Virus record (IMG/VR): IMGVR_UViG_3300029258_002996
Reading direction: 5' to 3' (one strand)
Length of the DNA: 64,000 nt
Source: a virus
The translations under genes were made by a program, and so were the position numbers. Positions 1 to 17,269 of this stretch are shown here, in pieces; positions within the stretch are counted from its first letter, which is position 1, and the number at the start of each line of letters is the position of its first letter. The notes beneath the pieces were generated by a model. It was not told the DNA's origin. It made no database searches and saw only the letters and a program-made list of their open reading frames with translations.

Positions 1-1056
1 CGCATCCAGAGTATCGCCTGCCCAGTACGCAGCGACGGCGTTCCCCGCCATGCCCTCGTCGTAACCCTTCTGCATGAGGTAGTAGGTCACGTCATCCTTG
101 GTTGTGCTTTCCTCGTCAGAAGGGGTGTAAGACCAGAACTGAGCCCGGAGGCGACGGCGGACGAGCTTCGGATCCAAGTTTGCGTGGCGCTCAACAGTGA
201 AAGAGACGATGGGCTCCAACGGTGTGGAGAGATCGACACCCTCCATCAGGCTCGCCAGATCCGCAGCCATGTTCGGAGCCGCGTCCATCCCGGTCGGCTC
301 GACCACGTTCTGCTGGAGGCACGTCAGAGTCAGCTCGTGCATCTGGGTTTCGAGCCTCTCGCGCTTCATCCAGCTATCATCTGAGTTCATTTGGGCTTCG
401 TCGATGGCATCTTCGAGATCGAGCAGCTCACGAATCTTGGCAATCGCTTGAGGTTCGAGCGGATCCCCGACGAATCGAGCAAGGTAGTCCTCGATGTCGC
501 ACCAACCCCAAAACGCTTTCTTCTTTTTGGCTGAGATCACGATGACCGCAGCGGCTTCGGAGGAGGTGGCTTTCATCCGCTCCAGATTGAGCATGTCGAG
601 GTCGTACATGATCTTGTCTTTTTGGCGGTACAGATCGTTGATCGGTTGGTTCTCAGTCTCCTGCATCCCCAACTCGAAGTAGGTCTGGAGCATCGCAGCG
701 GCTTCCTCTTCGAACTGAGTGCCTTTGAACGACATGAACCAGTCCTCCCACTGCATCGAATCGAAATAACCTTTTTTCCGCATCGCCTGTACCTCCGCAG
801 CAGCTCCTTGACCTAAAGTGCCTTTTTCGGACTCGTAAAGATCCACGGCTGCGTTACTCACGTAGTTCAAAAGAGCGTCGGAGCCGTCAAGCTCTTCATT
901 CTCCCCTTGTAAATTATCAAGATCAACGGGAACATCCGTCTCCCATCCTAAGCTTCCGTGCTCGGACACATTGACGTGATAAGAATCCGGGACATCGGAC
1001 GGTGAAACCGTCACGTCGTAACCCCGGATAAGCGTGGTGTAAGTGTCCTGTCCCAT
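1..1056 (-). CDS. Acidic putative head/internal protein, runs off the left edge (3'-truncated)
   Basis: ATG at 1056 just after the TAG of the upstream gene; frame reads open (MGQDTYTTLIRGY...) to position 1; contains SAKKKKAF and RRRLRAQ linker-like motifs; missing from the ORF track because there is no stop in the window. Confidence 0.75.
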   Translation of the reverse strand, partial: MGQDTYTTLIRGYDVTVSPSDVPDSYHVNVSEHGSLGWETDVPVDLDNLQGENEELDGSDALLNYVSNAAVDLYESEKGTLGQGAAAEVQAMRKKGYFDSMQWEDWFMSFKGTQFEEEAAAMLQTYFELGMQETENQPINDLYRQKDKIMYDLDMLNLERMKATSSEAAAVIVISAKKKKAFWGWCDIEDYLARFVGDPLEPQAIAKIRELLDLEDAIDEAQMNSDDSWMKRERLETQMHELTLTCLQQNVVEPTGMDAAPNMAADLASLMEGVDLSTPLEPIVSFTVERHANLDPKLVRRRLRAQFWSYTPSDEESTTKDDVTYYLMQKGYDEGMAGNAVAAYWAGDTLDA

Positions 1057-1058
1057 CT

Positions 1059-3929
1059 CTACCAGTTCTGCGCTATCGCGAGAAGAACGTCCTCGATGAG
1101 CGCCTTTGACCCCTTTGCGATGAAGTGAGGAAGCTCTTTCAACAGCTCGTCCGCGCTCCACTCCCGGAAATGGTACTCCTCGCCGTTGCTGAGCTTGATG
1201 TCGATTGAAGGGAGACTCGGATCGTAATTCACTTCACCGCCAGCAGCACGCTCGGATTCCGCACGCTCGATGTACTGCTGGACCATTTCGTCTTCCGATA
1301 CCTGAGCCCCCCGTCGATCAAAAGGGCGCTTATCCCCCTTCTTCGAGGCGCTCTTTTCTTCATAAATAAACTGCTCCCAAACACCTTGATTGCCTCGAAG
1401 AGACTCCAAAGCATCTTCGAAGATTTCCTGCTGCTCCTCCTCATCTTCAGGGCGTGGCACCTCATCGTAAGGATGCGAGTTCGCTATGGCGGACTTGAGG
1501 TGTACGTAAGTCACCGGTTCCGTATCCGCAGCACCTTCCATAATGTAGTCGTACAGTTGTTCCCGAAGCTCGTCGTCCTCGTAGACAAAATCCTCGAAAA
1601 CAGGGACAGTATCGATCAGATGCAGTTCGGCAGACGGAGTTAACTCTGCGACGTGAACGCCGAGATTTGCATCGAACAGGTAACCGCTGTAGACCTTCTT
1701 GATGCCTTTAGGAAGAGAAGTCCAGTATTCCGTATCGTCCATCAGGTAGATACGAAGATCCATCATCTTCTGCTCTTCTTGAGCCTTCTTCTTCGAGGCG
1801 CTTTCCACTTCCCATCCTTCTTCCGCTTCCCCTACCGCGCCTCCGCTAACCAAAGTCTCCCTACCAAAGGATTCGAAAATACTTTCGTTCCCGCAAGCAT
1901 TTCTTTGAGCCTCTTCAAGTGAGTCATATTCCGCCGCTTGACCTCGATCATTAGTATAAGAACTTAAAGAACCGGGACGAGACACATACATGCCGTCTTC
2001 ATTTCTTTTAAGCACGTACTTACCTACTTTCTTCGAGGCGATCCTCTCCGTCCCCGGGCGCATCCGTCCTCGGTTGCTGCCGTAAGGATTGATGATGAAC
2101 CCATCGTTTGTCAGGTGGACCATCCAGTGATGCGACGAGCAAGTGGAGAGCCTCTTCAGGATGTAGTTTTTCTCGACGTGCGCGTAGGAACGCGGGAACG
2201 TGTCGAGACCTTCCTCCTCGGCCTGGACCATGTCCCCGAGAACCAGATCATAACCGGGCGGAGTGAACTTCTGAAGCTCGGGTTCACGCTTCGAAGTGGG
2301 GTCGAAGGGATCGAACTGCTGAGCTTTTTTATCCATTTTATCACCTGCTTTTCTAACGCCAGTTACGTACTCAGCGATGATTCTCGCCGCGAGCTTACGA
2401 CCCGTTGCCGTCTGCATTCCGGACTGACCCACGTAGGTCACGAGATCCTGAGTCAACTGATGCCAGTCGATTTCCTGGTCCGGGTAGATTTGCATCGAAA
2501 GAGGTCGCACGGCATCATAGACCATCGAGACCTGCTCCTCGAAGGTCGGAGGAGCAAGAGAAGCTTCGATGTAACTCAACATCTCAGGTTGCTGGACTAC
2601 CTGGTTGTACATATCCGCAGTGGGAGTGGCGGCTCCGTACTGAGGTTGGGTTTGTTCTGTCGGTGCATAGATGTCCGTCTGCTGCACCATCGTGGGATCC
2701 GTAGCTACGTCAGGACGACCGCCCTGCTCGGGAGAGAGGACGCGAGTTTCTTGAGCTTCCCTCTTAGCCCACATCTTCTTGAAGGTCCTCGGAAGCGGCT
2801 CGATATCATCTACCGTCACCCGGTATTCCATTCCCTTGGCATTGACAATCATCGTGTTCGCGTCCGGGTCCAACTCGACAATCTTTCCTCGGATGGAACC
2901 ATCGAGACCGTTGAACTTCACCGAGTCTCCCGCTTCAATGGGAGTTTTGGTGTTCGGGTACATGAGGTGTGTCGGCGTAACCTCGGGACTCTCCTCGTCC
3001 GAAGGGGGCTCCGAAATGTCGGTGTTGATCTGAGCAGACCTCTGAACTCCCTTTCCCTTCTCAACCACCTCGACAATCGATTCCTCGAACCCGGAGGTCT
3101 CCATGCCCGTCGCGGGATCGATCCCCGAAAAACCGGGCTTGCCGCCCCACAGCTCGGGGTGACGTTCGGTGACGATGGCGGTCGTGAACTCGCCCGGGCT
3201 CACCTCGTACTGAACGAGATCCCCGATCTCGTAAGGAACACCACCAGGCTCCTGCCCCATCATGGGAAAGAGTTGCTCCTCTTTTCTCCGGTAGGTCCTC
3301 CGGTTGTAGTTTTCGTCCATCGGAACGCGCCGAGGTTGATAACCCATTTCGTTTCGTCGCTCTACCGCGATGTCGAGTTCCTCCCCTTGGTTCGGGGCTT
3401 GGTATTGCCTCCGAAGGGGATCCAGAAAGTACGAGCTATTGCGACGGATGATCTCGTCGATAGCCCCTTGTCCGAGAACGTACAGTCGATCCTCGAACAT
3501 CATCGTCGAGGGGGGAACCACTGCTCCGGATACTACGGGCACAAAAATCGTCGCATTCCTAACAGCACCTGAAGTCGTCGCAAAGCGGAGATTGAAGAGC
3601 AGCTCACCAGAGACGAGCTGGGATTCGTCGTGCCTGGCGTACTTGAGCTTGCGGGCTTGGCGGAACTCGACCCTCGGCACCAACGGCCAGTCGAGGACGT
3701 TCACCACTTCCTGCGTGGCAATCGCAGCTTCCTGAATGTAGGCGTTCAGATCCCGCACTCCAGACTTCATACCGACCTGCTTGACCTTGGAAAAGATGTC
3801 ATCGAGATCGACTTTCTCCGAAGTCTTCGTCATCTTCTGCCGCATTGCGGCCATGCGCCTGTCGTAATCGTCGAACAGAGGATGTTCGGCAACGTGCTTT
3901 TTTTTCTTCAGTTCCTCAAAAGTCGGCAT
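1059..3929 (-). CDS. 956-aa modular acidic protein, putative virion head polyprotein (two SH3/KOW-like modules plus acidic modules)
   Basis: Long ORF with a GAGG RBS; modules separated by RSAQ, KREAQ, KKAQ, KKKAQ, RRGAQ; YEIGDLVQY and IEAGDSVKF starts resemble KOW/SH3 barrels. Confidence 0.7.
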   Translation of the reverse strand: MPTFEELKKKKHVAEHPLFDDYDRRMAAMRQKMTKTSEKVDLDDIFSKVKQVGMKSGVRDLNAYIQEAAIATQEVVNVLDWPLVPRVEFRQARKLKYARHDESQLVSGELLFNLRFATTSGAVRNATIFVPVVSGAVVPPSTMMFEDRLYVLGQGAIDEIIRRNSSYFLDPLRRQYQAPNQGEELDIAVERRNEMGYQPRRVPMDENYNRRTYRRKEEQLFPMMGQEPGGVPYEIGDLVQYEVSPGEFTTAIVTERHPELWGGKPGFSGIDPATGMETSGFEESIVEVVEKGKGVQRSAQINTDISEPPSDEESPEVTPTHLMYPNTKTPIEAGDSVKFNGLDGSIRGKIVELDPDANTMIVNAKGMEYRVTVDDIEPLPRTFKKMWAKREAQETRVLSPEQGGRPDVATDPTMVQQTDIYAPTEQTQPQYGAATPTADMYNQVVQQPEMLSYIEASLAPPTFEEQVSMVYDAVRPLSMQIYPDQEIDWHQLTQDLVTYVGQSGMQTATGRKLAARIIAEYVTGVRKAGDKMDKKAQQFDPFDPTSKREPELQKFTPPGYDLVLGDMVQAEEEGLDTFPRSYAHVEKNYILKRLSTCSSHHWMVHLTNDGFIINPYGSNRGRMRPGTERIASKKVGKYVLKRNEDGMYVSRPGSLSSYTNDRGQAAEYDSLEEAQRNACGNESIFESFGRETLVSGGAVGEAEEGWEVESASKKKAQEEQKMMDLRIYLMDDTEYWTSLPKGIKKVYSGYLFDANLGVHVAELTPSAELHLIDTVPVFEDFVYEDDELREQLYDYIMEGAADTEPVTYVHLKSAIANSHPYDEVPRPEDEEEQQEIFEDALESLRGNQGVWEQFIYEEKSASKKGDKRPFDRRGAQVSEDEMVQQYIERAESERAAGGEVNYDPSLPSIDIKLSNGEEYHFREWSADELLKELPHFIAKGSKALIEDVLLAIAQNW
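1338..2040. repeat. Three in-frame copies of TTCTTCGAGGCG (minus strand encodes ASKK) at 1339-1350, 1789-1800, 2029-2040
   Basis: Identical 12-mer (15 bp identical for the first two), spacings 450 and 240 nt. Confidence 0.85.
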
Positions 3930-3932
3930 CGA

Positions 3933-4283
3933 TTACCTCGGACTTTGTCTAGGTATGGGTTGAGTCATCGGAGAAGGAGCCGGATTTCTAATCTTACGTC
4001 TCCGATCTTTGTCGTTCTGTCTTTGTTGGTCCCGAGTCGTTTGTACCGGCTCCGAGCCAAACGGATTGTCCACTCCGATAATCAAGCTGGATTTTACTCT
4101 TATGTTTGCATAACCGCCCGATTTCTTGGGATTCCAAAACGGAATCTCGTCATTCCCGGATCGAATATCGGCCCACAGCTCGTCGATTGTCTTATGCTCG
4201 CACAACACCGAAAACGTAGCTCCGGAACAAAACAAACGATACGGGTACAGAACCTCGGGAATTTGAACCAAGCTCGACATCAA
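3933..4283 (-). CDS. Hypothetical protein
   Basis: 116-aa ORF fitting between flanking genes, with a 4-nt overlap to the upstream gene. Confidence 0.7.
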   Translation of the reverse strand: MMSSLVQIPEVLYPYRLFCSGATFSVLCEHKTIDELWADIRSGNDEIPFWNPKKSGGYANIRVKSSLIIGVDNPFGSEPVQTTRDQQRQNDKDRRRKIRNPAPSPMTQPIPRQSPR

Positions 4284-4852
4284 AGCTCATCCTCGATCAA
4301 TGCGCGAACGATGTTGTCGGACCTTCGTTCATGCTCTAAATTTCGGTCGTCGATTTCGGAAAAAGCGAAAATGGCGATTTTGTCTCCGGGGCTCACTTCA
4401 TTCAGATCGCAAAATCCGCCATTGACTTCGATCACTCCATCGCAATTTCGGCAGCCCCACCTCTCCTTCGAGTTGACCTGAGTATTTCTCTGGACTTTGG
4501 AAACAACGCTATCTTTCAGGAACAACAGGTCTAGGGGGAACTTCACGGATCCTTGATGGAACACGACATCGTGATATCCCGGATAGGGGAAGTACAGACC
4601 GCAATCCTCCGGCAGACAATCGTAGTTTTGCAAGCCGACTCTCTTCTTTTCGAGGGTATCGGCGACATCGCAATGAACTTTGATCGATTTGTCCAGCCAC
4701 ATCGCGGTGACGTGGGTTACCGGAACAGGTTTGAGATCATCCGTCAGTCGCACAACTCCGGCTTCGAACATGTGGACATGCGGCGGCCCGTCCCAGTTGA
4801 TCAGGAGGCCGTAGTCCTCTTCGAACTGCCGTGCGTGCAACTTGACCAGCAT
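4280..4852 (-). CDS. DUF192-family protein
   Basis: Motifs VADTLEKKRVGL, LPEDCGLYF, FPLDLLFL, VIEVNGG..GDKI typical of DUF192. Confidence 0.8.
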   Translation of the reverse strand: MLVKLHARQFEEDYGLLINWDGPPHVHMFEAGVVRLTDDLKPVPVTHVTAMWLDKSIKVHCDVADTLEKKRVGLQNYDCLPEDCGLYFPYPGYHDVVFHQGSVKFPLDLLFLKDSVVSKVQRNTQVNSKERWGCRNCDGVIEVNGGFCDLNEVSPGDKIAIFAFSEIDDRNLEHERRSDNIVRALIEDEL

Positions 4853-5256
4853 TACTTCTTCCGAGTCTTCCTCGTTTTCTTGGACTTCTTCTCTTTTGGA
4901 GGCTCGGGTTCCTCTTTCGGCGCAGGCTCCGTCTCCGGCTCGGGTTCCGGAGAGGCTGCTTTCTTCTCGGCCTTCTTCGGCTTCTCCTCGGAATCCTTCT
5001 TCTCAAAGAGCTTAGGCACCCTCGAATGGAGCATATGCAGCAGCTCAGGCTGCTCCTTCAGGTCCGCCACGCTCATTCCCGTAAGCTCAACCAGATCCAC
5101 CGAGGACTGCTTCGTCACCACCACCGGAATCGCAGAGGAACGTAGCAATCTGCGTTTCTTGTGCCGAGACATTTCGTCGGGAAGGTCCACTTTCGGATAG
5201 AGCGTGAAGCTCACCGAACCTTGACCCGGGTTGAAAACTACGAATTTTTCAGTCAT
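4852..5256 (-). CDS. Hypothetical protein with K/E/P-rich low-complexity tail
   Basis: 134-aa ORF, AAGGAG RBS. Confidence 0.75.
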   Translation of the reverse strand: MTEKFVVFNPGQGSVSFTLYPKVDLPDEMSRHKKRRLLRSSAIPVVVTKQSSVDLVELTGMSVADLKEQPELLHMLHSRVPKLFEKKDSEEKPKKAEKKAASPEPEPETEPAPKEEPEPPKEKKSKKTRKTRKK

Positions 5257-5268
5257 GAATCTCTCCTT

Positions 5269-8200
5269 TTATTCAAAAAGGGCCGACATCGATTTGTTCT
5301 GCGGAAGACCGAACAGCTTGCGGGCGTCCGACAGATTGAGCCCCAGCTCCAGGAGCAGACGACGGGATAGCTCGGCCACCTTCTGCGTGGTTACTTGCTC
5401 CGGGCTCGTAGCGTTCACCGGCATCGACTGAACTTCTGCCAGAATCTGAAACGCCTGCTGCTCGGCGGGCATCTCCTTCGGCATCCCCTCCCCGAACTCA
5501 GGCATCGGGGCCGCAGGTTGGGTTAGCGCGGGAGTCTCTGGAGCTGCGGGAGCTGCCGGGGCCATCTGCGCCCGGCGCTTGTCGATCTTTTTCTGGATCA
5601 GGAGCGCCATCCGCTTGGCGACCGGGGGCGACACCGCAGGTCCCGTAGGCGCGGCAGGAGCCGGTACCCCAGGCCCCGGAGCCGATGGGCCGGGCGTGGC
5701 TGGAGCAGGCCCCGGAGCCTTCGGGGCACCTGGCATCTGTTTCTCGGGACCTTTCTTCTTGGTCCCGGGCTTGTTGAGCTTGATTTCGAGGACCTTCTTC
5801 TTGTCCTCGTCATCCATCAGCGAGATGTCCTCGGGAGTCCACCCGAGAGCCTGGAGACCCTCGTCTCCCGTTCCCGGAGACATTCCGGGGGCCTTGGGGG
5901 CTCCTGTAGCGCCGGGAGCCTTCGGAGCACCAGGAGCGGCTGGAGGAGCCGCAGGAGCAGGTCCGGGAGCCGGAGCGGTAGGCGCCGGTGCGGGAGCAGC
6001 CGGTTGGGCCATCGGAGCGGCGGCTTGGGCCTCGCGCTTGGCGCGGATCCATGCCTCGCGGCGCTTCTTGCGACCGGCTTTTCCCTTCAGTCCCTTTGGA
6101 ATACCCATCGGGCCTTTGCCTTTCCCCCGCATCTTCCCTTCACCTTTGCCCTTGGGAAGCTTCTTCTCCGGCTTCGGCTTGGTGACATCCCCATCCTCGG
6201 TGAGCTGCTTCCCGTACTCGCCCGCGTAGCCCTGCCAGTACTCCTTGGCGGATTCGTCGACCGCTTCCATCTCGCCGCCAGCAGAATTGCCATACCTACC
6301 TACTTTATTGTTTTCACGAACTTCCCATTCATCCTCCGGACCAAAGTCACTTGGAGGATCGTAGTCGGAACCTTCCTCGTCCAGAATACGACGCAATCTT
6401 TCAGGAGAAACAATCTGAACCATGCGACCGAGATCTTTATCGTATCTATGAGTAATCTCTGATGCTTCCATCTCGCCGCCAGCGGACTCTTCCTTCTTGG
6501 AGCTTGGGCACCCGGCTGCGGCTTGGCGAGATTCCTTATCCCAGCCTTGTCGCTTAACGTACTCTTCGTACTCCTCACGGTACTCCTCGTATTCTTCGAG
6601 AAGTTCGTCAGCTCCATCTGTCATGTACATTTCGAAAAGGTAGTCCAACGCATCCTCTTCTGTATCGAAAACAGACAAATCAGTTCGATCCATATAGCCA
6701 GGAGCGGACATGTAAGCGCCGTAACCTTGACGAAGCTCGATATCGTGAATCTCGCTATTCTCCAGATAGTCTCGAAGGGAAGTCCCCTCGACGCTCGCCC
6801 TCCCATCTTTCTCGATCTCCCGTTTCAACTCTTCGATCTCTTCTCCATCGACATACTCAGCCGAAACAGATTCACCACCCATCGGACCATCTACCTCAAC
6901 CCACTCACCATGTTCAACGAAAGGCTCCATGAACGCGGCCTGCTTCCGAGCCTGAACGGCAGGAGCTTGCTCCATCGGAGCCTGACCTTCTACCTCACCC
7001 GAGCCGGTCGGTTCGCTCCCTTCCTCGGGTTGAGCTGGGCGAAAAGGGCTCCAGTCCACCTCCTCCCCGCCAAACGCCATCGTCAGGGCGTGAAGCTCCT
7101 CGGCGGACTCGGCCTCAATGTCGCGACCGTAGCCGCCCTCGGGAGACCACTTCTCGCGAAGCTTGGGGCCAGCGACCTTCCAGTTGATCGCGCCAGGCTT
7201 CAAATCCCCGTTCCCGACGAGCATCCAAGCGAAGTCTTTAAGATCGTCGAGCTTGAACTCATCAACTTCCGCAACGAGCCGCGAAGCAATCTTAATGAAG
7301 TCGTCAGTGACATCCAGATCACCGCGCAAGATGGAAGCAATCAACTCGGACTTTTTCTTCTTGTCTTTGCCACCCGGAGTGTAGCCCTCGCCCTCCATCC
7401 AGTTGGCCAACGCCCATGGGTTGTCGATCTCGGGATCTCCCTTCATCTCCTTGACCGTCTTCTCCCACTTCTTCGGAACCTTGGCCTCGGTGTTGCCACC
7501 GGCTTCATCCATCGCACGGCGAGCGTGGCGCTGAGTCTTCTCGGTCGGCAGGAACACGTTGTTCGCAGCCCACTTGTCCGGATCCATGATGTCCCGGAGA
7601 AGCTGCTCGCTCGGACGTGCCCGTTTCATTTCCCGGTAGATATGGGAAGCATCGGGGGGTGAGTCGAAGGAGTCGACGATCTTGGAACCTTCCCGCTCTT
7701 CCCCTAAAAACTTGGAAATGAGCATCGGCTGAATGCCGGAAACGTCTTTGTAGTCAGTACGCATCAACTCAGCAGCGTGCTGCATCGTCTTGGTATACAA
7801 AGGTTCTATACCAGGGATCAGTAAGATGTAGTTGTAACCTTTTTCCTGCATCCCACGAGCGACCTCCTCTTCGTCCATCGCCCTGCGACGACCTTCCTTC
7901 TCATCTCGCAGATCCTTGCCCTCACCCTTCTCCTGGTCGATGACCTTCGACGGATCCGAGGGAGTCTCGCCCTTGTTCAGGTTCTTGCCAGGCTCCTCCT
8001 GGACCTTGACCTTGAAGGGGTCTTTACCGCCGTCTTCGGCACGGCGACGAGAACCCTTACCCGGGTATGAACGAAGTCGATTCTCAAAGGACGTCCAATC
8101 TACCGGACCTTTTGGAGTATCCCAATCGGGATTCTCTCCAGGAGCGGCGATGAAATAATCAGACCACTCCGAGATTTTTCCGTTTTCGATTACGACATTA

Positions 8201-8850
8201 TCCAAATTTTCGGGAGCATTCTCGACTAGGTCCCCTAAAGTCCCTATGTAGTTGGATTCATCGTCGTATACTTCTAATTCCGACCAATGAATTCCCGATT
8301 CGGCTCGGCGACGAGCATCCTTTTCGTTCCGCATCCTTCGATCACCCCAGTTTGTATCCGCGCCACCGGTATCCTTCCCGAGACTCGTGTCCGGAAGACC
8401 GCCACGTCCTTCGTCCTGTCGAGGACGCTTGTTGATGGCCGGGTCGAAGTTTCGAGGATTTCGATCCGAAGTATCTGGACCGAGCCGTGGGTTCGAGGTC
8501 GAAGTACCCTTCGAATCCGTCCCCTTCGGAGTCTCGTTCACGGTCGGATTGTACTTTGGATATTCCTTGGTCGAGGTATCCTTTTCGAGAACTTCGGCAG
8601 GCGAAGGAAGGCTCTGAGAAGGTCCTTGCGTCTCGTTCACACCCGGGATGGGCATGTCGGCTTCCTTGCAGAACCGGCGCACCTCCTCATCGAGTCGGCC
8701 AATATGGGTGGCGAAGCCATCGCCCTCGGGTGGCCAGATCTCTACATCGTCGTTGTCGTTGATTCGCATCAACCAGCCGCCAGGATTCTCGACAGTCTGA
8801 CCGTCAAAGAGTGCGCTCTTTACCTGCCTCGGATTCAATTCCTTTGCCAT
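5269..8850 (-). CDS. ~1190-aa modular protein, putative head/scaffold-cargo polyprotein with Pro/Ala-rich C-terminal region
   Basis: Probable start ATG 8850 (GAGGA RBS, MAKELNP); linkers RRRAE x2, RRRAM, RRAM, RKQAA, KREAQ, KRRAQ. Confidence 0.72.
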   Translation of the reverse strand: MAKELNPRQVKSALFDGQTVENPGGWLMRINDNDDVEIWPPEGDGFATHIGRLDEEVRRFCKEADMPIPGVNETQGPSQSLPSPAEVLEKDTSTKEYPKYNPTVNETPKGTDSKGTSTSNPRLGPDTSDRNPRNFDPAINKRPRQDEGRGGLPDTSLGKDTGGADTNWGDRRMRNEKDARRRAESGIHWSELEVYDDESNYIGTLGDLVENAPENLDNVVIENGKISEWSDYFIAAPGENPDWDTPKGPVDWTSFENRLRSYPGKGSRRRAEDGGKDPFKVKVQEEPGKNLNKGETPSDPSKVIDQEKGEGKDLRDEKEGRRRAMDEEEVARGMQEKGYNYILLIPGIEPLYTKTMQHAAELMRTDYKDVSGIQPMLISKFLGEEREGSKIVDSFDSPPDASHIYREMKRARPSEQLLRDIMDPDKWAANNVFLPTEKTQRHARRAMDEAGGNTEAKVPKKWEKTVKEMKGDPEIDNPWALANWMEGEGYTPGGKDKKKKSELIASILRGDLDVTDDFIKIASRLVAEVDEFKLDDLKDFAWMLVGNGDLKPGAINWKVAGPKLREKWSPEGGYGRDIEAESAEELHALTMAFGGEEVDWSPFRPAQPEEGSEPTGSGEVEGQAPMEQAPAVQARKQAAFMEPFVEHGEWVEVDGPMGGESVSAEYVDGEEIEELKREIEKDGRASVEGTSLRDYLENSEIHDIELRQGYGAYMSAPGYMDRTDLSVFDTEEDALDYLFEMYMTDGADELLEEYEEYREEYEEYVKRQGWDKESRQAAAGCPSSKKEESAGGEMEASEITHRYDKDLGRMVQIVSPERLRRILDEEGSDYDPPSDFGPEDEWEVRENNKVGRYGNSAGGEMEAVDESAKEYWQGYAGEYGKQLTEDGDVTKPKPEKKLPKGKGEGKMRGKGKGPMGIPKGLKGKAGRKKRREAWIRAKREAQAAAPMAQPAAPAPAPTAPAPGPAPAAPPAAPGAPKAPGATGAPKAPGMSPGTGDEGLQALGWTPEDISLMDDEDKKKVLEIKLNKPGTKKKGPEKQMPGAPKAPGPAPATPGPSAPGPGVPAPAAPTGPAVSPPVAKRMALLIQKKIDKRRAQMAPAAPAAPETPALTQPAAPMPEFGEGMPKEMPAEQQAFQILAEVQSMPVNATSPEQVTTQKVAELSRRLLLELGLNLSDARKLFGLPQNKSMSALFE
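6263..6483. repeat. 20-bp perfect direct repeat GCTTCCATCTCGCCGCCAGC (6263-6282 and 6464-6483), 201 nt apart, encoding AGGEMEA
   Basis: Directly visible; in frame; flanks a ~59-aa module. Confidence 0.9.
8035..8314. repeat. 16-bp near-perfect direct repeat TTCGGC(A/T)CGGCGACGA (8035-8050, 8299-8314) encoding RRRAE
   Basis: 15/16 identity, 264 nt apart, in frame. Confidence 0.75.
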
Positions 8851-8891
8851 TTTATTCCTCGACCTTCCTTTGTGAAAAAGGTTTTTAGTTT

Positions 8892-9953
8892 TTATTCGAA
8901 ATCCTCTTCGTCGTCCTCGAAACCCCTCAACCACAGCTTCGCTTCAGGATGCTCGGACGCTCTCAGAGTTTGAACAAAATCCTCAAGTGTATCAAACTCT
9001 TCAGACCAGTATTGCCACCCTTCGGTAATCGCGTTCATATAAGCTTCTTCAATCTGGTATTGATCTGCGTCGGGACCGAACTCTTCCCTGATTTCGTTCC
9101 AGAGACCTTCGTCCAACTCTTCGGAAAGTTTGTCATTGAAGAAAGCGTCATGAGCCTTTTCAAGACCGTGATCGATACCCCGTCCCGTAATGACGACGTA
9201 GGAGTCCGCCTCCATCTCGTCGCCGTCATAAACCCCAACTACGGAGACGGGGGAATCAGCATCTTGGGGGTAGAAAACGTCTTGATCGACGATGTCCTTG
9301 ACTGGATACTGGCTGAGGAGAGCGTCAAGGTTGGCTTTCTTTCTCCGACCCTCACGTCCGAAGTCCTCTTCGTCGTCCTCGAACTCTTCTTCCTCGGGTT
9401 TGTCCCAGTCCGTGTCGTACTCTTCTCCAAAGAGTTCGTGAACCTCTTTGTAATTGAGAGTGAGTGGGTATTGGTCGAACTCGAAAGGTCCGAAGTACCA
9501 AATAAGATCTCGATAAGCCTGCCCACGTTCGGCAGGGTCGTCCGACTTCAATTCGTTTACGAGTTCTTCTTTAGAAGACCCTACACTATCGGCAACCCCT
9601 TCCAAATCCTTCGCCCAGAAAGGTTCATCAAAGCGGGAAACTCCTCGATTAAATGTCAAGGCAACGTCGGGAACTAGATAACCGTCGATCTCCGCGAACT
9701 TCTCGATGTCAAATCGAGAGATGGTCCAGGTGGCTTGGTACTCGTTCTCCGCATCTGGATTCCAGTCCAGATCGTTCTCGACGTACCAGCCTTCGGGACC
9801 GTACTGGGTCTGGACAATCAAGAGACCGCCGTAGTCAATGAAGTTCACATCTCCGAGATTGGCGATAATGTCAGGTTTGTCACTCTTGCCTTCCTGAGCT
9901 TTGACGTTCTTGGAGATCCTCTTCAATGCTTCGTCAGGGAGTACTTGTCTCAT
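8892..9953 (-). CDS. 353-aa very acidic two-module protein (putative head cargo)
   Basis: Short basic leader ending NVKAQ, module 1, linker GRRKKAN, module 2; D/E-rich. Confidence 0.72.
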   Translation of the reverse strand: MRQVLPDEALKRISKNVKAQEGKSDKPDIIANLGDVNFIDYGGLLIVQTQYGPEGWYVENDLDWNPDAENEYQATWTISRFDIEKFAEIDGYLVPDVALTFNRGVSRFDEPFWAKDLEGVADSVGSSKEELVNELKSDDPAERGQAYRDLIWYFGPFEFDQYPLTLNYKEVHELFGEEYDTDWDKPEEEEFEDDEEDFGREGRRKKANLDALLSQYPVKDIVDQDVFYPQDADSPVSVVGVYDGDEMEADSYVVITGRGIDHGLEKAHDAFFNDKLSEELDEGLWNEIREEFGPDADQYQIEEAYMNAITEGWQYWSEEFDTLEDFVQTLRASEHPEAKLWLRGFEDDEEDFE

Positions 9954-12319
9954 CTTTCCAACCCCTCTTCCTCGCGCATTTCGGCAAGGTCGTTCAGAAT
10001 TTCGAGCAGCTCAGGGTCTCCCGCGTAGGCCAACTCCGTCTCCATTCCCGCAGTATGTGGGATTTCCAACCCGTGATGCTCGTGACTGTCGTACCACCCT
10101 ACTCCGTGACCCATTCCCTCCATCGCGAGGTAGTGACCGAACTCGTCGCGGTTGAAGTCCTCATCCTCACCAGGAGGAATGAAGGTTTCCAGGTCGACGT
10201 TGTTGGAGCGCTCGATATCTCGGTAGAAGTTGGTTGCAAATTCGATAGCTTCGGGTGGAGTCTCCGGGGCAATGTTCATCAACTCGGCCCCCATGAAGTT
10301 CGGGGACTCGATTTCGACATCCACTTCATCGGCAAGGCGGTCAGCCTCCTCCCATTCGTCTGCCCACGAAGAGACAAAGAAGGCGCGAGCCATCGCTTCG
10401 ACAATAGTAGGATCCGGTTCACCCGCTTGAGCTTGACGACGAGCCTCGTGTCCAGGAGTTCCGAGAAGGTTTAACACATCCTTCAAATCCCACAAAAGCT
10501 CCGTACCTTCATCCAGAGCTTCCCGGTATTCCCTTTTCTTTGATTCATCCGCGACTACGTCAGGTTGCTTGATATTCACCTCGTACCATCTAACCGCGTC
10601 CTCAAGCTCCTCATGCGCGGCTTCGATTACGTCTTTTTCTACCGGATGCCCTGCGGACCAGTTAGATCCCAGCGCATAGAGTGCAGATCCTTGCCCTCCG
10701 TGCCATTTGAGAAGATCTTCCGCAAGCCCCCGATCTGGCTTGATTTCTTCTTCTTGAGCTTGACGACGAGATCCCCTCCAAGCAGGACCCCAAAGCTCAC
10801 CCTCGGGGGGTTCCTCTTCGCGGGAGGGCTTGTCCCAATCGAAATCCTCGACGAGGTGGAAGTTCCCGTGATCGGAAACGTGCCAAATATTTGGCCAATA
10901 CTGTTGACGGTTCCCCTCTTCTCGAATGGCATCTTCAATGCCATCCCACTCGACAAACTCTCCAAGATGCTTTCCTGCGAAGTAGACATCTTCGCCCCCA
11001 AGATATGAAGCGGACTGGATGAAAACATCATCTTCGTCGGGCTCAAAATCGTCTCCCTGAGCTTGGCGACGAGCAACCGCTCCAGAACCCATCCCGCCAT
11101 GACCAGGACCAGCTTCAGGACCCGCCTGCGCTTTACCTTTTCCTACCTGACCAGGTCCGCGCTTGGGTTTCTTGACTTCGTGGAGAGATTCTTTTTCAGC
11201 TTGCTGCTGAGACTGAGGTCGAGGGGGAAGGGAGGGATCTGGTTCGAGACCGAGGAGATCTCCCATTGCTTCACCCGGACGCATGTTGAGCGCAGGATCT
11301 TCCCCTAAAGGATCCGAAGGGAAGTAATCCTCAAGAGGATTCCAAGTAGCCCATTCGGGTGCCCCGCTCATCGCACGCTCTTCTTCGGGACTTAACCATC
11401 TCTGTGAAGGATCCGAAAATGTTTCTTCCGGTGTTTTCGCGAATGGCGCATCCTGCTGCACCGTTGCAGGTCCTCGCGGAGTCTGAATGTACTTGACGCC
11501 CGGTTCATTGCCGGACGCCTGAGCGTCCCTACGGTAAAAAGGGCGCTTCCCACCCCCTCGACGAGCATTCGGACCTTGACGCTTGCGCTTGGGGGGAGGA
11601 TTCTCCTTACGGAACTCCCCGGAATCACCACCCCCGACCTCGTGCTTGATCTTCTTCTGCACCCAGTCGGCAGTCTCCTCGCCATATTCCAGGTCAGGCT
11701 CTTCCCCGTTTACCATTGAAAGAACAAACCGGCGAGCCTTTACCTGATGTGGGAGAGGACCGTTCAAACCGTGCTTTAGGATCAGACGGTCGTAGTCTTC
11801 CTGAGTTTCGATCTGAGAGGCGATGCGCTGGAGGTCGTTGATCGGGAGAGTCGCGTAACCTTTCTGACCGATTTCGACGATCACCTCCGCCGCCGCCGAC
11901 TTGGGGAAGTTCCGTTTGTAGTGATCGTGGAGCGTGAGGTAGGAGCTGGCAGTAATGGACCCGGTGCGGTTCTTCTTCCACATCCCCTCCAGATGACCGT
12001 ACAAAGCCCGAAGACCGTGATCAGTCCCGAGGTCCTTGCGCGCCTTCACGATTCGATAGGCGTCGAAGACGGAAGCTACGGGAAGATTTCCGTTGATCTG
12101 CCCCGCTTCTCGATCAAGCTCCTCGGCGATCTTCTTCCGAACCTGCTCGACATGGGGAATATTCAACCGGAACTCCCGGGAATTCGCCTCATCTTGAGCT
12201 TGACGGCGAGCGACGGCTCCCGAGTAGAGTTTCGCAAGCCTGCCGACTCGAAGATCACCGACAGATTGCTGGGAAAAATCCGCGAGGTCCTGTTTGACGT
12301 TACGCCCGAATCTATTCAT
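9950..12319 (-). CDS. 789-aa modular protein with four RRQAQ and one RRDAQ linker (putative head polyprotein)
   Basis: GAGGAG RBS; three C-terminal acidic modules each begin immediately after RRQAQ. Confidence 0.75.
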   Translation of the reverse strand: MNRFGRNVKQDLADFSQQSVGDLRVGRLAKLYSGAVARRQAQDEANSREFRLNIPHVEQVRKKIAEELDREAGQINGNLPVASVFDAYRIVKARKDLGTDHGLRALYGHLEGMWKKNRTGSITASSYLTLHDHYKRNFPKSAAAEVIVEIGQKGYATLPINDLQRIASQIETQEDYDRLILKHGLNGPLPHQVKARRFVLSMVNGEEPDLEYGEETADWVQKKIKHEVGGGDSGEFRKENPPPKRKRQGPNARRGGGKRPFYRRDAQASGNEPGVKYIQTPRGPATVQQDAPFAKTPEETFSDPSQRWLSPEEERAMSGAPEWATWNPLEDYFPSDPLGEDPALNMRPGEAMGDLLGLEPDPSLPPRPQSQQQAEKESLHEVKKPKRGPGQVGKGKAQAGPEAGPGHGGMGSGAVARRQAQGDDFEPDEDDVFIQSASYLGGEDVYFAGKHLGEFVEWDGIEDAIREEGNRQQYWPNIWHVSDHGNFHLVEDFDWDKPSREEEPPEGELWGPAWRGSRRQAQEEEIKPDRGLAEDLLKWHGGQGSALYALGSNWSAGHPVEKDVIEAAHEELEDAVRWYEVNIKQPDVVADESKKREYREALDEGTELLWDLKDVLNLLGTPGHEARRQAQAGEPDPTIVEAMARAFFVSSWADEWEEADRLADEVDVEIESPNFMGAELMNIAPETPPEAIEFATNFYRDIERSNNVDLETFIPPGEDEDFNRDEFGHYLAMEGMGHGVGWYDSHEHHGLEIPHTAGMETELAYAGDPELLEILNDLAEMREEEGLER
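10426..12210. repeat. Four copies of an 18-bp repeat CTTGAGCTTGACGACGAG (10426-10443, 10753-10770, 11056-11073, 12193-12210) encoding RRQAQ
   Basis: First two identical, others with 1-2 mismatches; all in frame. Confidence 0.88.
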
Positions 12320-12421
12320 TTTGGATACTCCTCGGTGGTTTCCATTGTCATATTGAAAAACAGTTGTACCATAAGATGTTTGCTATGCTCTAAAGGCTGG
12401 GAAAGGAATTTTTCAGATTTT

Positions 12422-12724
12422 TTACAAGGCTTTGCCGATATCTCGCATCAAGTGAACCTTCCCGCACTCCAAGCATTTGATCTCTAAAGGTAATGTACCA
12501 AAGATCGTCTCCATCTGCGCGGAACAACATGGACTTCGAACCTCGTCACAATCGTCTTCGTCCTCGACGCAGGGATCCCCCTTGTCCTGATCTTCCTCTT
12601 CGGATTTACTCTGCTTGGCCCGTTGGAAAAGCTCGAACAGCTCTTGGACTTTTTCCTTGTTCAGATTTTTGAGGTTCTCGGGGACGTTCTCCAGCGCTTG
12701 CTGGAGTTCGGGAGGAAGGCTCAC
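12422..12724 (-). CDS. Small protein with C-terminal Zn-ribbon-like Cys motifs
   Basis: SPCC...KCLECGK. Confidence 0.65.
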   Translation of the reverse strand: MSLPPELQQALENVPENLKNLNKEKVQELFELFQRAKQSKSEEEDQDKGDPCVEDEDDCDEVRSPCCSAQMETIFGTLPLEIKCLECGKVHLMRDIGKAL

Positions 12725-12727
12725 GGA

Positions 12728-13603
12728 TTACTTCCGGACGTTGGAAGGGGAGAGCTTGGCGGGTACTACAGACACCCAAGCAGAGCCGTATGCCCCATAG
12801 TAATTTTCCCAATAAGCCGCAGCTACATCGTCCACTCCGTTCTTCCTCATCCAGGCACCCGCCATATCCGCCTTGACGCGCTTTTTCACGTCCTGAACGA
12901 GATCTTGGCCGTACAGCCCGTAGTACTCTTCGTAGTACGATTTGGCTGCCTCGTCCACCGCGATTTTTCTCGAACTGGCGTCCGCGAAATCGCGGAAAAC
13001 TTTCGAGACCTTCTGCGCGATTCCCCCATGTTTCAGAAAGGCTTCCCGGACCCGTCCCAGCTTCACGAGATCTACCGTCTCTCGCAGCACAGCGGGGGGA
13101 ACATCCTTACAGGTGTTGAGAACGTCCTTCGTCATGATGAAGGGAAGGTTCAAATACTTTGAAGCGCTTCTCGTCCGGATGCCGTCTGCAACCGACTGAC
13201 GAATCTCTTGCACGGTTTCGGATCCGTAAGCTCTGCGCAGCTCTTCCCAGCTCGGAACGCGGGGAGACTGCTCCCTGCGGTCAGACGCATTGAATCGACG
13301 CACCACCGCCACGGGGATGTCCGTAGAGAAAGTGGAGTCGTCTACAAGGTCGGCTCCGAAGAGACCCCACATCGCGGCGCAGGTATCCTTCGCTTCCTGC
13401 TTCCGCTTGGCTTCGTCACGACGCTTGCTTGCAGCTTTCAGCATCGCCCGACGTTTTTCCTGCTCGAAGCTTTCCTTCTCCTGCTTACTCCGCCGAAGAT
13501 GGACTCGACCATCCTCGCCCCTTCCGGCGGACCACATGTGGTGCGCATCTCTTCGGGGATTTTCGGAACGTCGCATTTCGTTTGCCTCCATGTTTCGTCT
13601 CAT
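12728..13603 (-). CDS. Putative head-associated protein with two Tyr-rich VDxxAxxY(W/Y)xxYYGxYG repeats
   Basis: Repeat shared with the 5269-8850 protein; first copy preceded by the linker RKIA. Confidence 0.65.
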   Translation of the reverse strand: MRRNMEANEMRRSENPRRDAHHMWSAGRGEDGRVHLRRSKQEKESFEQEKRRAMLKAASKRRDEAKRKQEAKDTCAAMWGLFGADLVDDSTFSTDIPVAVVRRFNASDRREQSPRVPSWEELRRAYGSETVQEIRQSVADGIRTRSASKYLNLPFIMTKDVLNTCKDVPPAVLRETVDLVKLGRVREAFLKHGGIAQKVSKVFRDFADASSRKIAVDEAAKSYYEEYYGLYGQDLVQDVKKRVKADMAGAWMRKNGVDDVAAAYWENYYGAYGSAWVSVVPAKLSPSNVRK

Positions 13604-13872
13604 AAGTACGGGGCGACCAAGTAATCGTAAGATTTATCGACTTCGGATTCTACTTGATCTGCCTCCCGATCACTTACCCAGGATTGTAACAGCTTTGTGA
13701 TCGCAGTCAACTGCCAATCCATCGACCAGCTAGCTACCTGTTCCAGGGATTTCAACGCCCCACGAACGAGCGTACCCCAGTAGGTATTGGCCAAAGGATT
13801 TTGCGAGGTTTTTCGAAGGAGGGTATCGTCCTCCAAGATCAACCTCAGAAATCTTTCGGCTTCTGGTCTCAT
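13600..13872 (-). CDS. Hypothetical protein
   Basis: 90-aa ORF after an AT-rich intergenic region; ATGA overlap with the next gene. Confidence 0.65.
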   Translation of the reverse strand: MRPEAERFLRLILEDDTLLRKTSQNPLANTYWGTLVRGALKSLEQVASWSMDWQLTAITKLLQSWVSDREADQVESEVDKSYDYLVAPYL

Positions 13873-13920
13873 GCCGATCTTATATTAACATAAATATTTT
13901 AGATATTTTTAAGCAAAGGG
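13873..13920 (-). promoter_or_regulatory. AT-rich putative promoter upstream of the head-protein cluster
   Basis: Minus strand reads TTGCTT-N18-TATGTT within a very AT-rich gap. Confidence 0.35.
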
Positions 13921-13981
13921 AAGGTAGGAAAAAGCAAAGATCAGCTACTTGCGATCTTGAATCCGTAGGTTCCGAAAATCT

Positions 13982-14878
13982 TCACTTCCCGTATTTGGAG
14001 ATCAGCTCCTGAGCCTTGGCTTGGCCGACAGGGGTGAGAACCATCGTCTGCTTGTCGGTGGGATGAAGCTGAAGAAGCTCGGGATTTTTGTAAACCTCCC
14101 GTCTCGTGTTGTTCTTTCTGGGGTGAGTCGTCCCGTCCGAAGTCGTCAGGTTCTTCACCAACTCATCTACCCGAGCGGATCCGCCCATCTTGTGAAGGGC
14201 CATCAAAACCTTGTCGGAAAACACCGGCCCCTCCACGTGTCGTTTCCGCTTCTTCTTTTGTACTGTCGTATTTCCGTTTTGCGAATACTCGGGCATCTTC
14301 ACTCTCCTTTTTTTCTTCAAACGAAGATCAAAATACACCGGATGGCAATCGCCGAAATGTATCGGCGAAGGGGCCAGTGCAAACTTGTCGTCCGATATTT
14401 GTTCGATCCTCGGTCTTCCTCTCAGGATCGATTGAACCACCGACACCGGTGCGTTCGTCATTATGTAGTTTTGATCCAATGCGTTCAAACAGGCGCAGAA
14501 CCTCTTCGACCGAAGTTTTTTGAGGACGTAGTCGTGGCGGCTGTAAGAGCTTCGCCGGATATCGAGAAGGTAACACTTGTCCGACTTGCAGATGTACTTC
14601 CGACGAAACTCCTGGAACGGCAGGTTGAAGTACCGTTTGATCCAATGATAGATGGTGACAAAGCTGACTCCGATGTAATCGGCCATCCCACCTGCCGATT
14701 TGAAGATCGCGGCGTCGAGAAGAATGTCCCGAATCGGCATCTCGTGCTCGACCTGGGCAATGAGGACGCGGTACGAGTGCGCTGCCTTGCATTTGTCGCA
14801 AAACAGATGCCCCTGCAATTCCCGGTTCGAAATTCCCGAAACCAACTGGGTGCAGTAGGGAGTGTCGCACTCTCTCAT
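13982..14878 (-). CDS. Putative DNA-binding regulator (Cys-rich N-terminus, HTH, C-terminal winged-helix-like region)
   Basis: CxxxxC/CxxC motifs; MADYIGVSFVTIYHWIKR HTH pattern. Confidence 0.6.
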   Translation of the reverse strand: MRECDTPYCTQLVSGISNRELQGHLFCDKCKAAHSYRVLIAQVEHEMPIRDILLDAAIFKSAGGMADYIGVSFVTIYHWIKRYFNLPFQEFRRKYICKSDKCYLLDIRRSSYSRHDYVLKKLRSKRFCACLNALDQNYIMTNAPVSVVQSILRGRPRIEQISDDKFALAPSPIHFGDCHPVYFDLRLKKKRRVKMPEYSQNGNTTVQKKKRKRHVEGPVFSDKVLMALHKMGGSARVDELVKNLTTSDGTTHPRKNNTRREVYKNPELLQLHPTDKQTMVLTPVGQAKAQELISKYGK

Positions 14879-14884
14879 ACAAAA

Positions 14885-15331
14885 CTAATCCTCATCCGTA
14901 TCGAAAAACTTCTTGACGTAACCCTCCAAACTGAGCAACGCCGGGGGAATGTACAGGAGCGCCGGAGTATCCGAAGTCTCTGGTTTCGTAAATCTGATCT
15001 GATCTACGTATACGTGAAGGTTCTGCCGGAGAACCGACAACGTCTGCTCATTGTCCAGATTGGAAACCTTTTGCAAATCCTCCTCGGAAGGTTCTTTCGC
15101 GGCGTGTCCGTCAAGAACTTTCATATCCCCCGGCATCGGGACTCCGATCACCTCATCCACCCAATGACAATCCCGGTACGGGTGCGTACCCGCAGAGCGG
15201 ACGGTCATCTGGAACTCTTCTTCGGTCATCACATCGTCCGGTGAGCCGAACGACGGACACTCACCCGGGCAGCGTTTCGTCTTCTTGATCAGATCGACTG
15301 CCCAATTCTTCCACGCTTGTTTCATCGGCAT
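14885..15331 (-). CDS. Hypothetical protein
   Basis: ORF overlapping the trigger-factor stop; start chosen at ATG 15331 (or 15325). Confidence 0.6.
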   Translation of the reverse strand: MPMKQAWKNWAVDLIKKTKRCPGECPSFGSPDDVMTEEEFQMTVRSAGTHPYRDCHWVDEVIGVPMPGDMKVLDGHAAKEPSEEDLQKVSNLDNEQTLSVLRQNLHVYVDQIRFTKPETSDTPALLYIPPALLSLEGYVKKFFDTDED

Positions 15332-16586
15332 CTGTCCACTTGATCCTTTCCATAACGTCATCGATAAACTCCGCACCACCGGGATCCACATCGTACTCAC
15401 TCCCGTACCAGAGCATCGCTAGACGTTGCATGTAATCTCGGTAAATCTGACCTTTGAATCTATTTCGAAACGATTCTTCATCGGTCACCCCGACCGCCAA
15501 CATCGCTTGCTTTTGATTTCCCCGAAATCTATCGAGGTGCAAGTCGATCATCCGGTCGATGTTCTTTTTCAACCATTCTTGAGGCAGCGGTGGTATTGGA
15601 GAATTTCGGATAATCTGTCCAAGAATATGATCGGTAGCGGTCGCTTGCTCGGCGTTCGTCTTGTACCTTTTGTAATCTTCAACGAACTTTTTCCGAAAAG
15701 CTTTCAGATCATCAAAACCCGCTTTCTTCGCAAGATCATCGTCGACTTCCGGATAGTTCACGATTTTTATCTCATGAACTGTGATCTCGACCTGCACGGT
15801 TTTCCCCAAAACCTCGGGGTCGTGTTTCGGCTCGAACTCCAGCTCGAACACGTCCCCCCTCTTGTGCTCCAGTAAAGCTTCCTGGATTTCAGGCACGACC
15901 ATTTCCCGCCATTCAATCCATTGATCTCGGATGGTGCCGTTGGGGTAAGGTTCTCCGTCGATTTCCGCGAGAATCGTAAGATTCAGATCGTGGTTCTCCT
16001 TGATCTGATCCTCACCTTCAGGAACTGCTACATGAGTTTTCTGATCTGCTTGAATTTCCTTGCAGCGACGTTCCCACTCTTCCTTCTCGCTCAAAACCGG
16101 TGGATAGGGACATGCAAAGTTGATCTCCTTTTTCGGTTTCAGCTTCGGAGTGAAGTAGACGACGGCCCCCAACTGAACTTGCTCGCCAGGTTCGAAATTG
16201 AAAAGCTCATAACCGTCAATAAACATAATTTCATCGTTGAGATGATCATGAATCTCGTTGATCAGAACCTCTGAGTACAGGCGCTTGACGCCGATCTGCT
16301 TCTCGACGATCTTGCGCGCATTTCGCGCTTTACCGCCCTTTTGTTTTTTACTCTTCGCCAACCGGGAAAGCTTCTTCTCGTTCTTCTCCCAGAACAAGTC
16401 GAACTTCGCCTTCAAGTCCTCGTAGTAAAACCAGCAGACGAGCCGATAAGGCTGCGCCAAGGGCTCGACTACGATAGGGGGGAGGGGCTCGCGCTCGGAC
16501 TCCTCCTCCTGCTCTGCACCAACGCCCTCTTCCTGGGCATCCTCAGTAAGGTCGGACGATGATTTCTGTTCGAGGTTCTCCGTCAT
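15261..16586 (-). CDS. tig: Trigger-factor homolog (N, FKBP-like and C domains), divergent
   Basis: 441 aa; IDGEPYPNG, LGKTVQVEITVHEIK, YPEVDDDLAKKAGFDDL match the trigger-factor pattern; GFRxGxxP absent. Confidence 0.8.
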   Translation of the reverse strand: MTENLEQKSSSDLTEDAQEEGVGAEQEEESEREPLPPIVVEPLAQPYRLVCWFYYEDLKAKFDLFWEKNEKKLSRLAKSKKQKGGKARNARKIVEKQIGVKRLYSEVLINEIHDHLNDEIMFIDGYELFNFEPGEQVQLGAVVYFTPKLKPKKEINFACPYPPVLSEKEEWERRCKEIQADQKTHVAVPEGEDQIKENHDLNLTILAEIDGEPYPNGTIRDQWIEWREMVVPEIQEALLEHKRGDVFELEFEPKHDPEVLGKTVQVEITVHEIKIVNYPEVDDDLAKKAGFDDLKAFRKKFVEDYKRYKTNAEQATATDHILGQIIRNSPIPPLPQEWLKKNIDRMIDLHLDRFRGNQKQAMLAVGVTDEESFRNRFKGQIYRDYMQRLAMLWYGSEYDVDPGGAEFIDDVMERIKWTDADETSVEELGSRSDQEDETLPG

Positions 16587-17010: not shown

Positions 17011-17011
17011 G

Positions 17012-17269
17012 TCATTTGCAAACCAAGCTGTTGATGATCTGAACTACTCGATCATCTCCCCGAAACCACAGGTTCTTGACGATGTAGTCCCTTTCAATCG
17101 GACCTTGAACAAACAGTTCGCGCACCTTCCGTCCTCCGTAAGGTCCGTTAGTCAAGAGAATGTCGTCTCCCTCAACTTGGTAGCCTACGAGGTTTAGTTG
17201 CTTCTGCTGCCGTTTCGCAGCTTCGTGCGCCTTCTCGCGGCGAGCCATAGAAGCAGGTTTGTTCATCAA
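17012..17269 (-). CDS. Hypothetical protein
   Basis: 85-aa ORF, overlapped junctions. Confidence 0.65.
   Translation of the reverse strand: MMNKPASMARREKAHEAAKRQQKQLNLVGYQVEGDDILLTNGPYGGRKVRELFVQGPIERDYIVKNLWFRGDDRVVQIINSLVCK

Follow-up and report, generated by a model that had tools for sequence, protein, structure and literature searches.

In phage T4, a protease of the gp21 fold acts at one motif, (L/I)xE, which serves both the capsid and the contents of the head (IPI-III, Alt, gp67/68, gp22, and gp23). In herpesviruses, the sites of assemblin (MEROPS S21) read (V/L)-x-A, with the cut between Ala and Ser, and are confined to the scaffold. The proteases of phiKZ, 201phi2-1, and SPN3US (gp175 or gp245) recognize S/A/G-x-E or AXE (PMC5694885, PMC10052503). 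In SPN3US, the capsid, the portal, and ejection proteins present in abundance all share one short site for the protease, AXE; the propeptides receive several cuts each and mostly exit the head (PMC10052503). Polyvalent proteins, from phages and conjugative elements (Iyer et al. 2017), are large and combine disparate domains; the prediction is that they accompany the DNA and that proteolysis frees them. An assemblin-like peptidase is part of some, and processing before transfer is not universal (PMC5512222).

The locus described here resembles each of these systems in part. As in T4, a gp21-fold protease is encoded, one motif is common to the capsid and the putative head contents, and in some of the cluster proteins the motif follows an N-terminal stretch of 17-40 residues, reminiscent of a capsid-targeting propeptide. 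However, the motif is basic-basic-x-Ala instead of (L/I)xE, and the T4 internal proteins are basic, whereas those found here are mostly acidic, long multi-module chains with many internal sites; they are without sequence similarity to T4 proteins, and their genes lie outside the head module. The likeness to phiKZ, 201phi2-1, and SPN3US is that of a large phage whose capsid, portal, and internal proteins share a cut motif, some with multiple sites, the cuts being predicted in our case. The lineage is a different one (its capsid and protease are related to those of Rctr197k, phiRSL1, PaBG, mycobacteriophage cluster C, and phage G), as is the specificity, and the pieces resemble independent, exchangeable modules, not a propeptide plus a mature protein. 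With polyvalent proteins, and with the Dar proteins of P1, the cluster shares large proteins that string together disparate domains, and the polyvalent trait of large polypeptides with several unrelated domains is present here in a portal/terminase phage. In contrast to polyvalent proteins, the cluster proteins gave no match to the known hub domains or to an embedded peptidase, their genes are not beside MuF or packaging genes, and processing would occur in trans at a uniform short linker. Herpesvirus assemblin has the same fold as the protease and Ala before the cut (predicted here); the herpesvirus sites lack the basic residues at P4 and P3, and the system lacks cargo polyproteins.

The window, that is, the whole stretch of 64,000 nucleotides that was analyzed, is the reverse strand of positions 39623-103622 in a 127,888-bp single-contig phage record. 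A contig of 182,061 nt also encodes the same proteins, so the record is probably a fragment. All genes are carried on the minus strand of the window. Baseplate genes are followed by a replication module (ParB, family A DNA polymerase, RecA, a clamp-loader-type ATPase of the DNA polymerase III delta/AAA type, DnaB, primase, an SNF2 helicase, and SbcCD-like proteins) and then by the polyprotein cluster; downstream of the cluster, beyond the window, are a phrog_421 protein, a helicase, and a methyltransferase. The cluster is thus flanked by replication and helicase genes and is not part of the head or structural module. A scan of the cluster for promoters and terminators gave background levels, from which no expression timing can be deduced. 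Residues 71-400 of protein A match TIGR00115 (E 1.6e-28, below the curated cut-off), and the gene is syntenic in three relatives (G003, G004, and G005); its product is possibly a chaperone for the long multi-module proteins. The features are listed below; the arrow marks the predicted cut.

15261..16586, minus strand: protein A, a divergent trigger-factor homologue heading the conserved gene block
12728..13603, minus strand: protein D, 291 aa, net basic; RRDA↓HH close to the N-terminus, S-RKIA↓VDE conserved
9950..12319, minus strand: protein F, 789 aa, a conserved N-terminal part of ~250 aa and then four variable modules, separated by RRDA↓Q and three copies of RRQA↓Q
11522..11533, minus strand: F linker RRDA↓Q, residues 263-266; relatives have RKRAQ or KRRGQ at this junction
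11060..11071, minus strand: F linker RRQA↓Q, residues 417-420, where F block 374-426, present in the H homologues of relatives, ends
10757..10768, minus strand: F linker RRQA↓Q, residues 518-521; its DNA (CGT CGT CAA GCT CAA) is that of the 627-630 linker
10430..10441, minus strand: F linker RRQA↓Q, residues 627-630; the module that follows is a separate 185-aa ORF in G003
8892..9953, minus strand: protein G, 353 aa, two acidic modules with the joint GREG-RKKA↓N, and an N-terminal VKA↓Q at residues 17-20
5269..8850, minus strand: protein H, 1193 aa, N- and C-terminal parts conserved, middle variable, eight [KR][KR]xA sites
8038..8049, minus strand: H linker RRRA↓ED..DPF, residues 268-271; RR[RKN]A[ED] and then DPF in ~14 homologues
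7879..7890, minus strand: H linker RRRA↓M, residues 321-324; G003 and G004 homology blocks stop at 321/322
6028..6039, minus strand: H linker KREA↓QAAAP, residues 938-941
5569..5580, minus strand: H linker KRRA↓QM, residues 1091-1094; [KR][KR]..AQ family-wide
3933..5256, minus strand: three small conserved genes within the cluster, for proteins of 116, 190 (DUF192), and 134 aa
1059..3929, minus strand: protein L, 956 aa, a conserved N-terminal part of ~290 aa and modules split by KREA↓Q, KKKA↓Q, and RRGA↓Q
1..1056, minus strand: protein M, 540 aa (352 in the window), with KKKA↓F and RLRA↓Q, the weakest member
L001:12575-13492: head maturation protease, 305 aa, near the portal, scaffold, and capsid genes

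The first-pass annotation had described six strongly acidic proteins, punctuated by short basic linkers that end in Ala. All six ORFs are present on the minus strand, the one at 1-1056 comprising the first 352 of the 540 residues of protein M, which continues beyond the window start. Each of the linkers named was found in its ORF: four RRQAQ and one RRDAQ in F; two RRRAE, RRRAM, RKQAA, KREAQ, and KRRAQ in H; and KREAQ, KKKAQ, KKAQ, and RRGAQ in L, for example. The acidic character applies to five of the six proteins; protein D, however, is net basic.

Motif counts were compared to those in 2000 shuffles of each protein. Over the 4122 aa of the six cluster proteins, [KR][KR].A occurs 24 times versus 5.7 expected (z 7.9), a count that none of the 2000 shuffles reached. 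Extended forms of the motif are in excess as well: 15 copies of [KR][KR].A[QEM] versus 0.98 expected, and ten of [KR][KR].AQ versus 0.24 expected (z 20). Control patterns ([KR][KR].G, S, L, or E, and the reversed motif) gave z values from 0.3 to 2.9, and [KR][KR]A. gave 3.6. The rest of the genome (29.8k aa) has no excess, with 29 copies of [KR][KR].A versus 32.4 expected, so that the anticipated enrichment over background was borne out. The sole other enriched set in the genome consists of five head-morphogenesis proteins outside the window (18 motifs versus 4.6 expected, z 6.5). In a logo of 82 sites from the phage and its relatives, 60% have Ala, Gly, or Ser at P5, against 23% in the background, and 26% have Gln at P1', against 4%; both preferences fall outside the search pattern. 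The linker consensus is small-(R/K)-(R/K)-x-Ala, followed by Gln, Ala, or Glu. Some copies of [KR][KR].A are not linkers: those at F residues 38-41 and 62-65 fall within a predicted helix, and relatives do not conserve them. Ends of homology blocks fall near the motif 2.1-2.6 times as often as expected, but the control [KR][KR].G scored 3.1 times, and this test is therefore not specific to the linker motif.

A search with the capsid protein recovered 24 related IMG/VR loci (65-83% identity), the longest contig measuring 212 kb. Among deposited phages, Virus Rctr197k is the closest; phiRSL1, PaBG, Lu11, the jumbo phages of Erwinia and Dickeya, mycobacteriophage cluster C, and phage G are further removed. 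The same search with protein F found no true relative because the cluster proteins diverge too fast, and L retrieved a single homologue apart from itself in a database search. Three complete relatives, G003 to G005, keep the order of the gene block from the trigger-factor-like gene to the last large protein; the modules within the large proteins are rearranged. A short block of F is found inside the H homologues of relatives, and the first module of G (residues 27-179) is inside the L homologue of G004, immediately following KKAGQ. Twelve metagenomic homologues of F share only the N-terminal ~250 residues (~30%) and carry differing C-terminal modules joined by (G)REG-RRQAQ; in one of them a module is duplicated in tandem, with EGRRQA on each side.

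The motif itself persists through this shuffling. In 32 homologues of H there are 140 motifs versus 53 expected, and the sites 268-271, 938-941, and 1091-1094 are kept even beside unrelated sequence. At 938-941, [KR]x[AGS]Q[AQ] occurs in nearly all 33 family members, even with unrelated sequence upstream. Extra modules inserted into H homologues have the motif at both flanks; residues 268-271 are the insertion point for such motif-flanked modules in P0167, P0169, P0171, and P0176. In protein L, site 389-392 coincides with the starts of homology blocks (388/390), and the C-terminal modules are without counterpart in the relatives. Conservation of the motif extends to 45 homologues, drawn from many samples. 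It is looser in relatives, where often only R.AQ remains (3-5 observed versus 0.2-0.8 expected in homologous proteins), and strict copies are few in some F and L homologues. These observations support the view that the motif marks a real joint, kept by selection, between separable modules, which relatives reshuffle.

The AlphaFold model of F has a mean pLDDT of 53.6, with confident blocks at 81-240, 430-490, 545-620, and 640-730. The segments with pLDDT below 50 (243-311, 377-425, 491-543, and 619-635) contain the four conserved linkers; since 45% of F has a pLDDT below 50, this placement is not significant alone. In this one modeled protein, no predicted domain spans any of the four conserved linkers; a domain running across them would have spoken against cleavable joints.

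The linkers also carry a signature at the DNA level. The four RRQAQ linkers of F have almost identical 15-nt DNA made up of non-preferred codons, and in the RRQAQ linkers of F together with the RRRA linkers of H all seven RR pairs are CGT CGY, versus 12% of RR pairs elsewhere. The linkers of L use different codons. The near identity of the F and H linkers in DNA indicates that the pattern is in part a product of linker DNA having been copied. Taken together, the codons suggest that linker DNA was copied, or provides short homology for module exchange, and that the amino-acid pattern is kept independently. A recombination joint and a role at the amino-acid level may coexist in the same element.

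The first-pass annotation had proposed looking for a prohead protease and capsid elsewhere in the genome and seeing whether the capsid propeptide ends in the linker motif. Both genes are in a head module outside the window (genome positions 9132-17512, locus L001), together with the portal, a 357-aa protein, a 640-aa scaffold-like protein, and an Ig-like decoration protein. The N-terminal extension of the 424-aa major capsid protein is very basic: the first 112 residues include 33 Lys/Arg, as well as four motifs versus 0.85 expected from local shuffles (P 0.005). One of these, RRDA↓M at 105-108, marks the start of the PHROG capsid profile and of the alignments with phiRSL1 and PaBG; both basic residues and the Ala are kept in 19 of 23 related loci, and DRDA, NKDA, and RRDV are the variants. 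The putative propeptide, as delimited by the start of homology, thus does end in the shared motif. The scaffold-like protein has a conserved RR[DE]A↓AEGNF ~45 residues before its C-terminus, and the portal a conserved RR.A at about residue 55, within a Gly-rich N-terminal stretch. By their sequence and position, these three are the putative maturation sites one would expect in the head proteins. Motifs that occur in the core of the protease and in the 357-aa protein are within conserved structured regions and are probably not sites. The papers on PaBG and phage G report no capsid cleavage site for this capsid lineage. The chain in PDB 6wkk begins ~30 residues past the proposed capsid site, which does not settle the site.

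The protease matches phrog_18299, the PHROG head maturation protease (E 1e-31). PDB searches with its sequence, both single and as a profile, returned nothing, and the link to gp21 came from a fold search: an AlphaFold model built with 23 homologues (pLDDT 87.9) ranked T4 gp21 (5jbl) at the top in Foldseek. In VIA-align, 5jbl scores Z 12.2 (143 residues at an rmsd of 2.4 Å), ahead of the proteases of varicella-zoster virus (Z 6.0) and cytomegalovirus (Z 4.9). Two candidate catalytic residues, His110 and Ser182, do not vary among the 23 homologues. Herpesvirus assemblins cleave after Ala, which makes Ala at P1 plausible for a protease of this fold. In most of 1415 representative homologues, the protease is the N-terminal domain of a protein of 800-1460 aa, probably a protease-scaffold fusion. 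In these fusion relatives the motif is just 2-fold over expectation and occupies no fixed position at the junction; the specificity may therefore be limited to the close lineage.

Searches for function returned little. Pfam and PHROG scans of all the cluster proteins gave DUF192 only, and a Pfam search with ten pieces split at the motif (E<=1) gave nothing above noise. Neither the whole proteins (Pfam, E<=0.01) nor the ten pieces matched a polyvalent hub domain (zincin MPTase, ART, DdrB-ParB, helicase, primase, or others), and no embedded peptidase was found in either set with Pfam. An ESM Atlas search with the last F module gave no usable match, a megablast of the region against phage records gave nothing, and neither did tblastn of L and H against 50,697 phage records. 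In these searches (Pfam, PHROG, tblastn with L and H, and ESM Atlas), no module resembled known internal head, ejection, or anti-defence proteins.

From the distribution of the motif we conclude that the cluster polyproteins are probably cut at the linker by the phage's own prohead protease: the motif is common to the polyproteins and to the places where the capsid, portal, and scaffold are expected to be trimmed. The proteins would be "beads on a string", with conserved end domains and variable, small, independently folding modules. A short linker bounds each module and would be the most likely recognition site of the prohead protease. The enzyme would cut after Ala, as assemblin does, and the same protease would trim the basic 108-residue extension of the capsid protein, the N-terminus of the portal, and the C-terminus of the scaffold. 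Because prohead proteases work within a head under construction, the polyproteins would join the prohead core as it assembles and would be cut there into many small proteins; these would then either remain with the DNA, as cargo for ejection into the next host, or exit the head. By analogy with the described systems, packaging with subsequent ejection is quite conceivable, but we rate it as somewhat short of an even chance; the location of the cluster among replication genes and the mostly acidic proteins speak against it. The complete reading, in which the linker is a prohead protease site and the polyproteins are co-assembled in the core, diced, and then kept as cargo or expelled, appears to us evenly balanced.

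The same observations can be read in other ways. The proteins could be uncut, multi-domain polyvalent proteins in which the element is a flexible linker whose DNA provides homology for module exchange. The 15-nt core shared by the F linkers, with its non-preferred codons, and the excess of CGT CGY for the RR pairs of F and H over the 12% seen elsewhere fit this account, and so does the occurrence of the linker on both sides of inserted modules, as expected of recombination at a repeat; moreover, polyvalent proteins are not always processed before transfer (PMC5512222). However, L and the relatives hold the amino-acid pattern through different codons and through exchange of Lys and Arg, the motif is conserved also at the termini of non-modular proteins (capsid, portal, and scaffold), and the preferences at P5 and P1' resemble a substrate logo. 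We therefore regard uncut proteins as unlikely. Cleavage at the motif could instead take place in the cytoplasm, by another host or phage protease, with the products acting there and never being packaged. This would suit a cluster that sits among replication genes, begins with a trigger-factor homologue, and has a DUF192 gene inside it, but it leaves the conserved motif in the head proteins unexplained, and no second protease was recognized in the cluster in the Pfam and PHROG scans; such cleavage seems to us improbable.

The polyproteins might also be a sacrificial prohead core, like T4 gp22, gp67, and gp68, which would be chopped up and expelled to make room for the DNA and would have no role in the next host. 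The modules are free-standing, shuffled, duplicated, and predicted to fold, which suggests that each has its own function, and a dedicated scaffold of 640 aa is already present; we consider this role a shade less probable still than cytoplasmic cleavage, even with the acidic sequence, the many closely spaced sites, and the precedent of SPN3US, whose propeptides are multiply cut and mostly exit the head (PMC10052503). That the pattern is a chance or compositional artefact of basic, low-complexity linkers is effectively refuted: basic clusters are generally near module junctions, and [KR][KR].G is equally enriched at the ends of homology blocks, but the motif reaches z values of 7.9 to 20 against shuffles, where most controls remain below 3, and it is conserved in 45 homologues. 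We thus return to cleavage by the prohead protease as the preferred reading. If the linker is both a cleavage site and a recombination joint, effector modules could be plugged in, duplicated, and swapped, and would automatically be packaged, released, and delivered to the next host. The most far-reaching form of this idea, in which a lineage of large uncultured phages has an assemblin-fold protease with basic-basic-x-Ala specificity that dices cassette polyproteins within the head as a plug-and-play capsid cargo system, is put forward only tentatively.

Should the linker be a protease site, it would represent a new prohead-protease specificity, with Ala at P1 as in the assemblins and basic residues at P4 and P3, and a simple sequence rule would predict head contents across a large group of uncultured phages. 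Phages would also have a modular means of evolving sets of small proteins and of delivering them, here including dozens without known function, and the motif would be a practical handle to load foreign proteins into such capsids. If the proteins are uncut, they would still illustrate clearly how phage proteins shuffle domains through linkers.

In most of 1415 representative homologues, the protease is the N-terminal domain of proteins of 800-1460 amino acids, which are probably protease-scaffold fusions; in this phage, protease and scaffold are encoded by separate neighbouring genes (305 and 640 amino acids). The protease gene lies in the head-module locus L001, outside the window:

L001:12575-13492, protease gene of this phage (homologues P0022-P0165)

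The portal ORFs of relatives are 979-1464 amino acids long, versus 612 amino acids in this phage:

L008:1683-4829, L013:289-4683, L020:145-4434 and L026:15-2954, long portal ORFs in loci of relatives

Similarity to these ORFs ends at about residue 350-400, which, together with their lengths, suggests that they contain large insertions; these are possibly inteins. Long insertions are also found in some protease homologues (P0038 and P0040). Residues 1-108 of the major capsid protein (L001:16238-16561) are extremely basic, with about 30% Lys/Arg, and this N-terminal extension exceeds the capsid leaders of phiRSL1 and PaBG by 60-70 residues.

The four RRQAQ linkers of F, one of the multi-module cluster proteins, share a near-identical 15-nt string, CGY CGY CAA GCT CAR (window 10430-12208, minus strand). 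Its codons are non-preferred, and this short repeat within the gene may drive module shuffling. Between the cluster proteins H and L lies a further gene:

window 4280-4852, minus strand, DUF192 protein (PF02643, E = 2e-16)

A recurring promoter-like element, a TTGACA-type box followed by CTCTGCTATAT(A/T), was found upstream of several genes just past the cluster; none was seen within the cluster:

genome 104190-104447, 105300-105369, 112623-112719 and 115710-116103 (L003/L004, outside the window), promoter-like element

The 127.9-kb record probably represents only part of the genome. In its scanned ORFs, no terminase was noticed; proteins L and H also occur on a 182,061-nt contig, and F on a 139,861-nt contig.

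The conserved gene block is headed by a trigger-factor-like gene, which keeps its synteny in three relatives:

window 15261-16586, minus strand, divergent phage-encoded trigger-factor homologue (TIGR00115, E = 1.6e-28, residues 71-400)

The TIGR00115 match scores under the equivalog cut-off, and Pfam does not detect the homologue. This protein may chaperone the long multi-module proteins.
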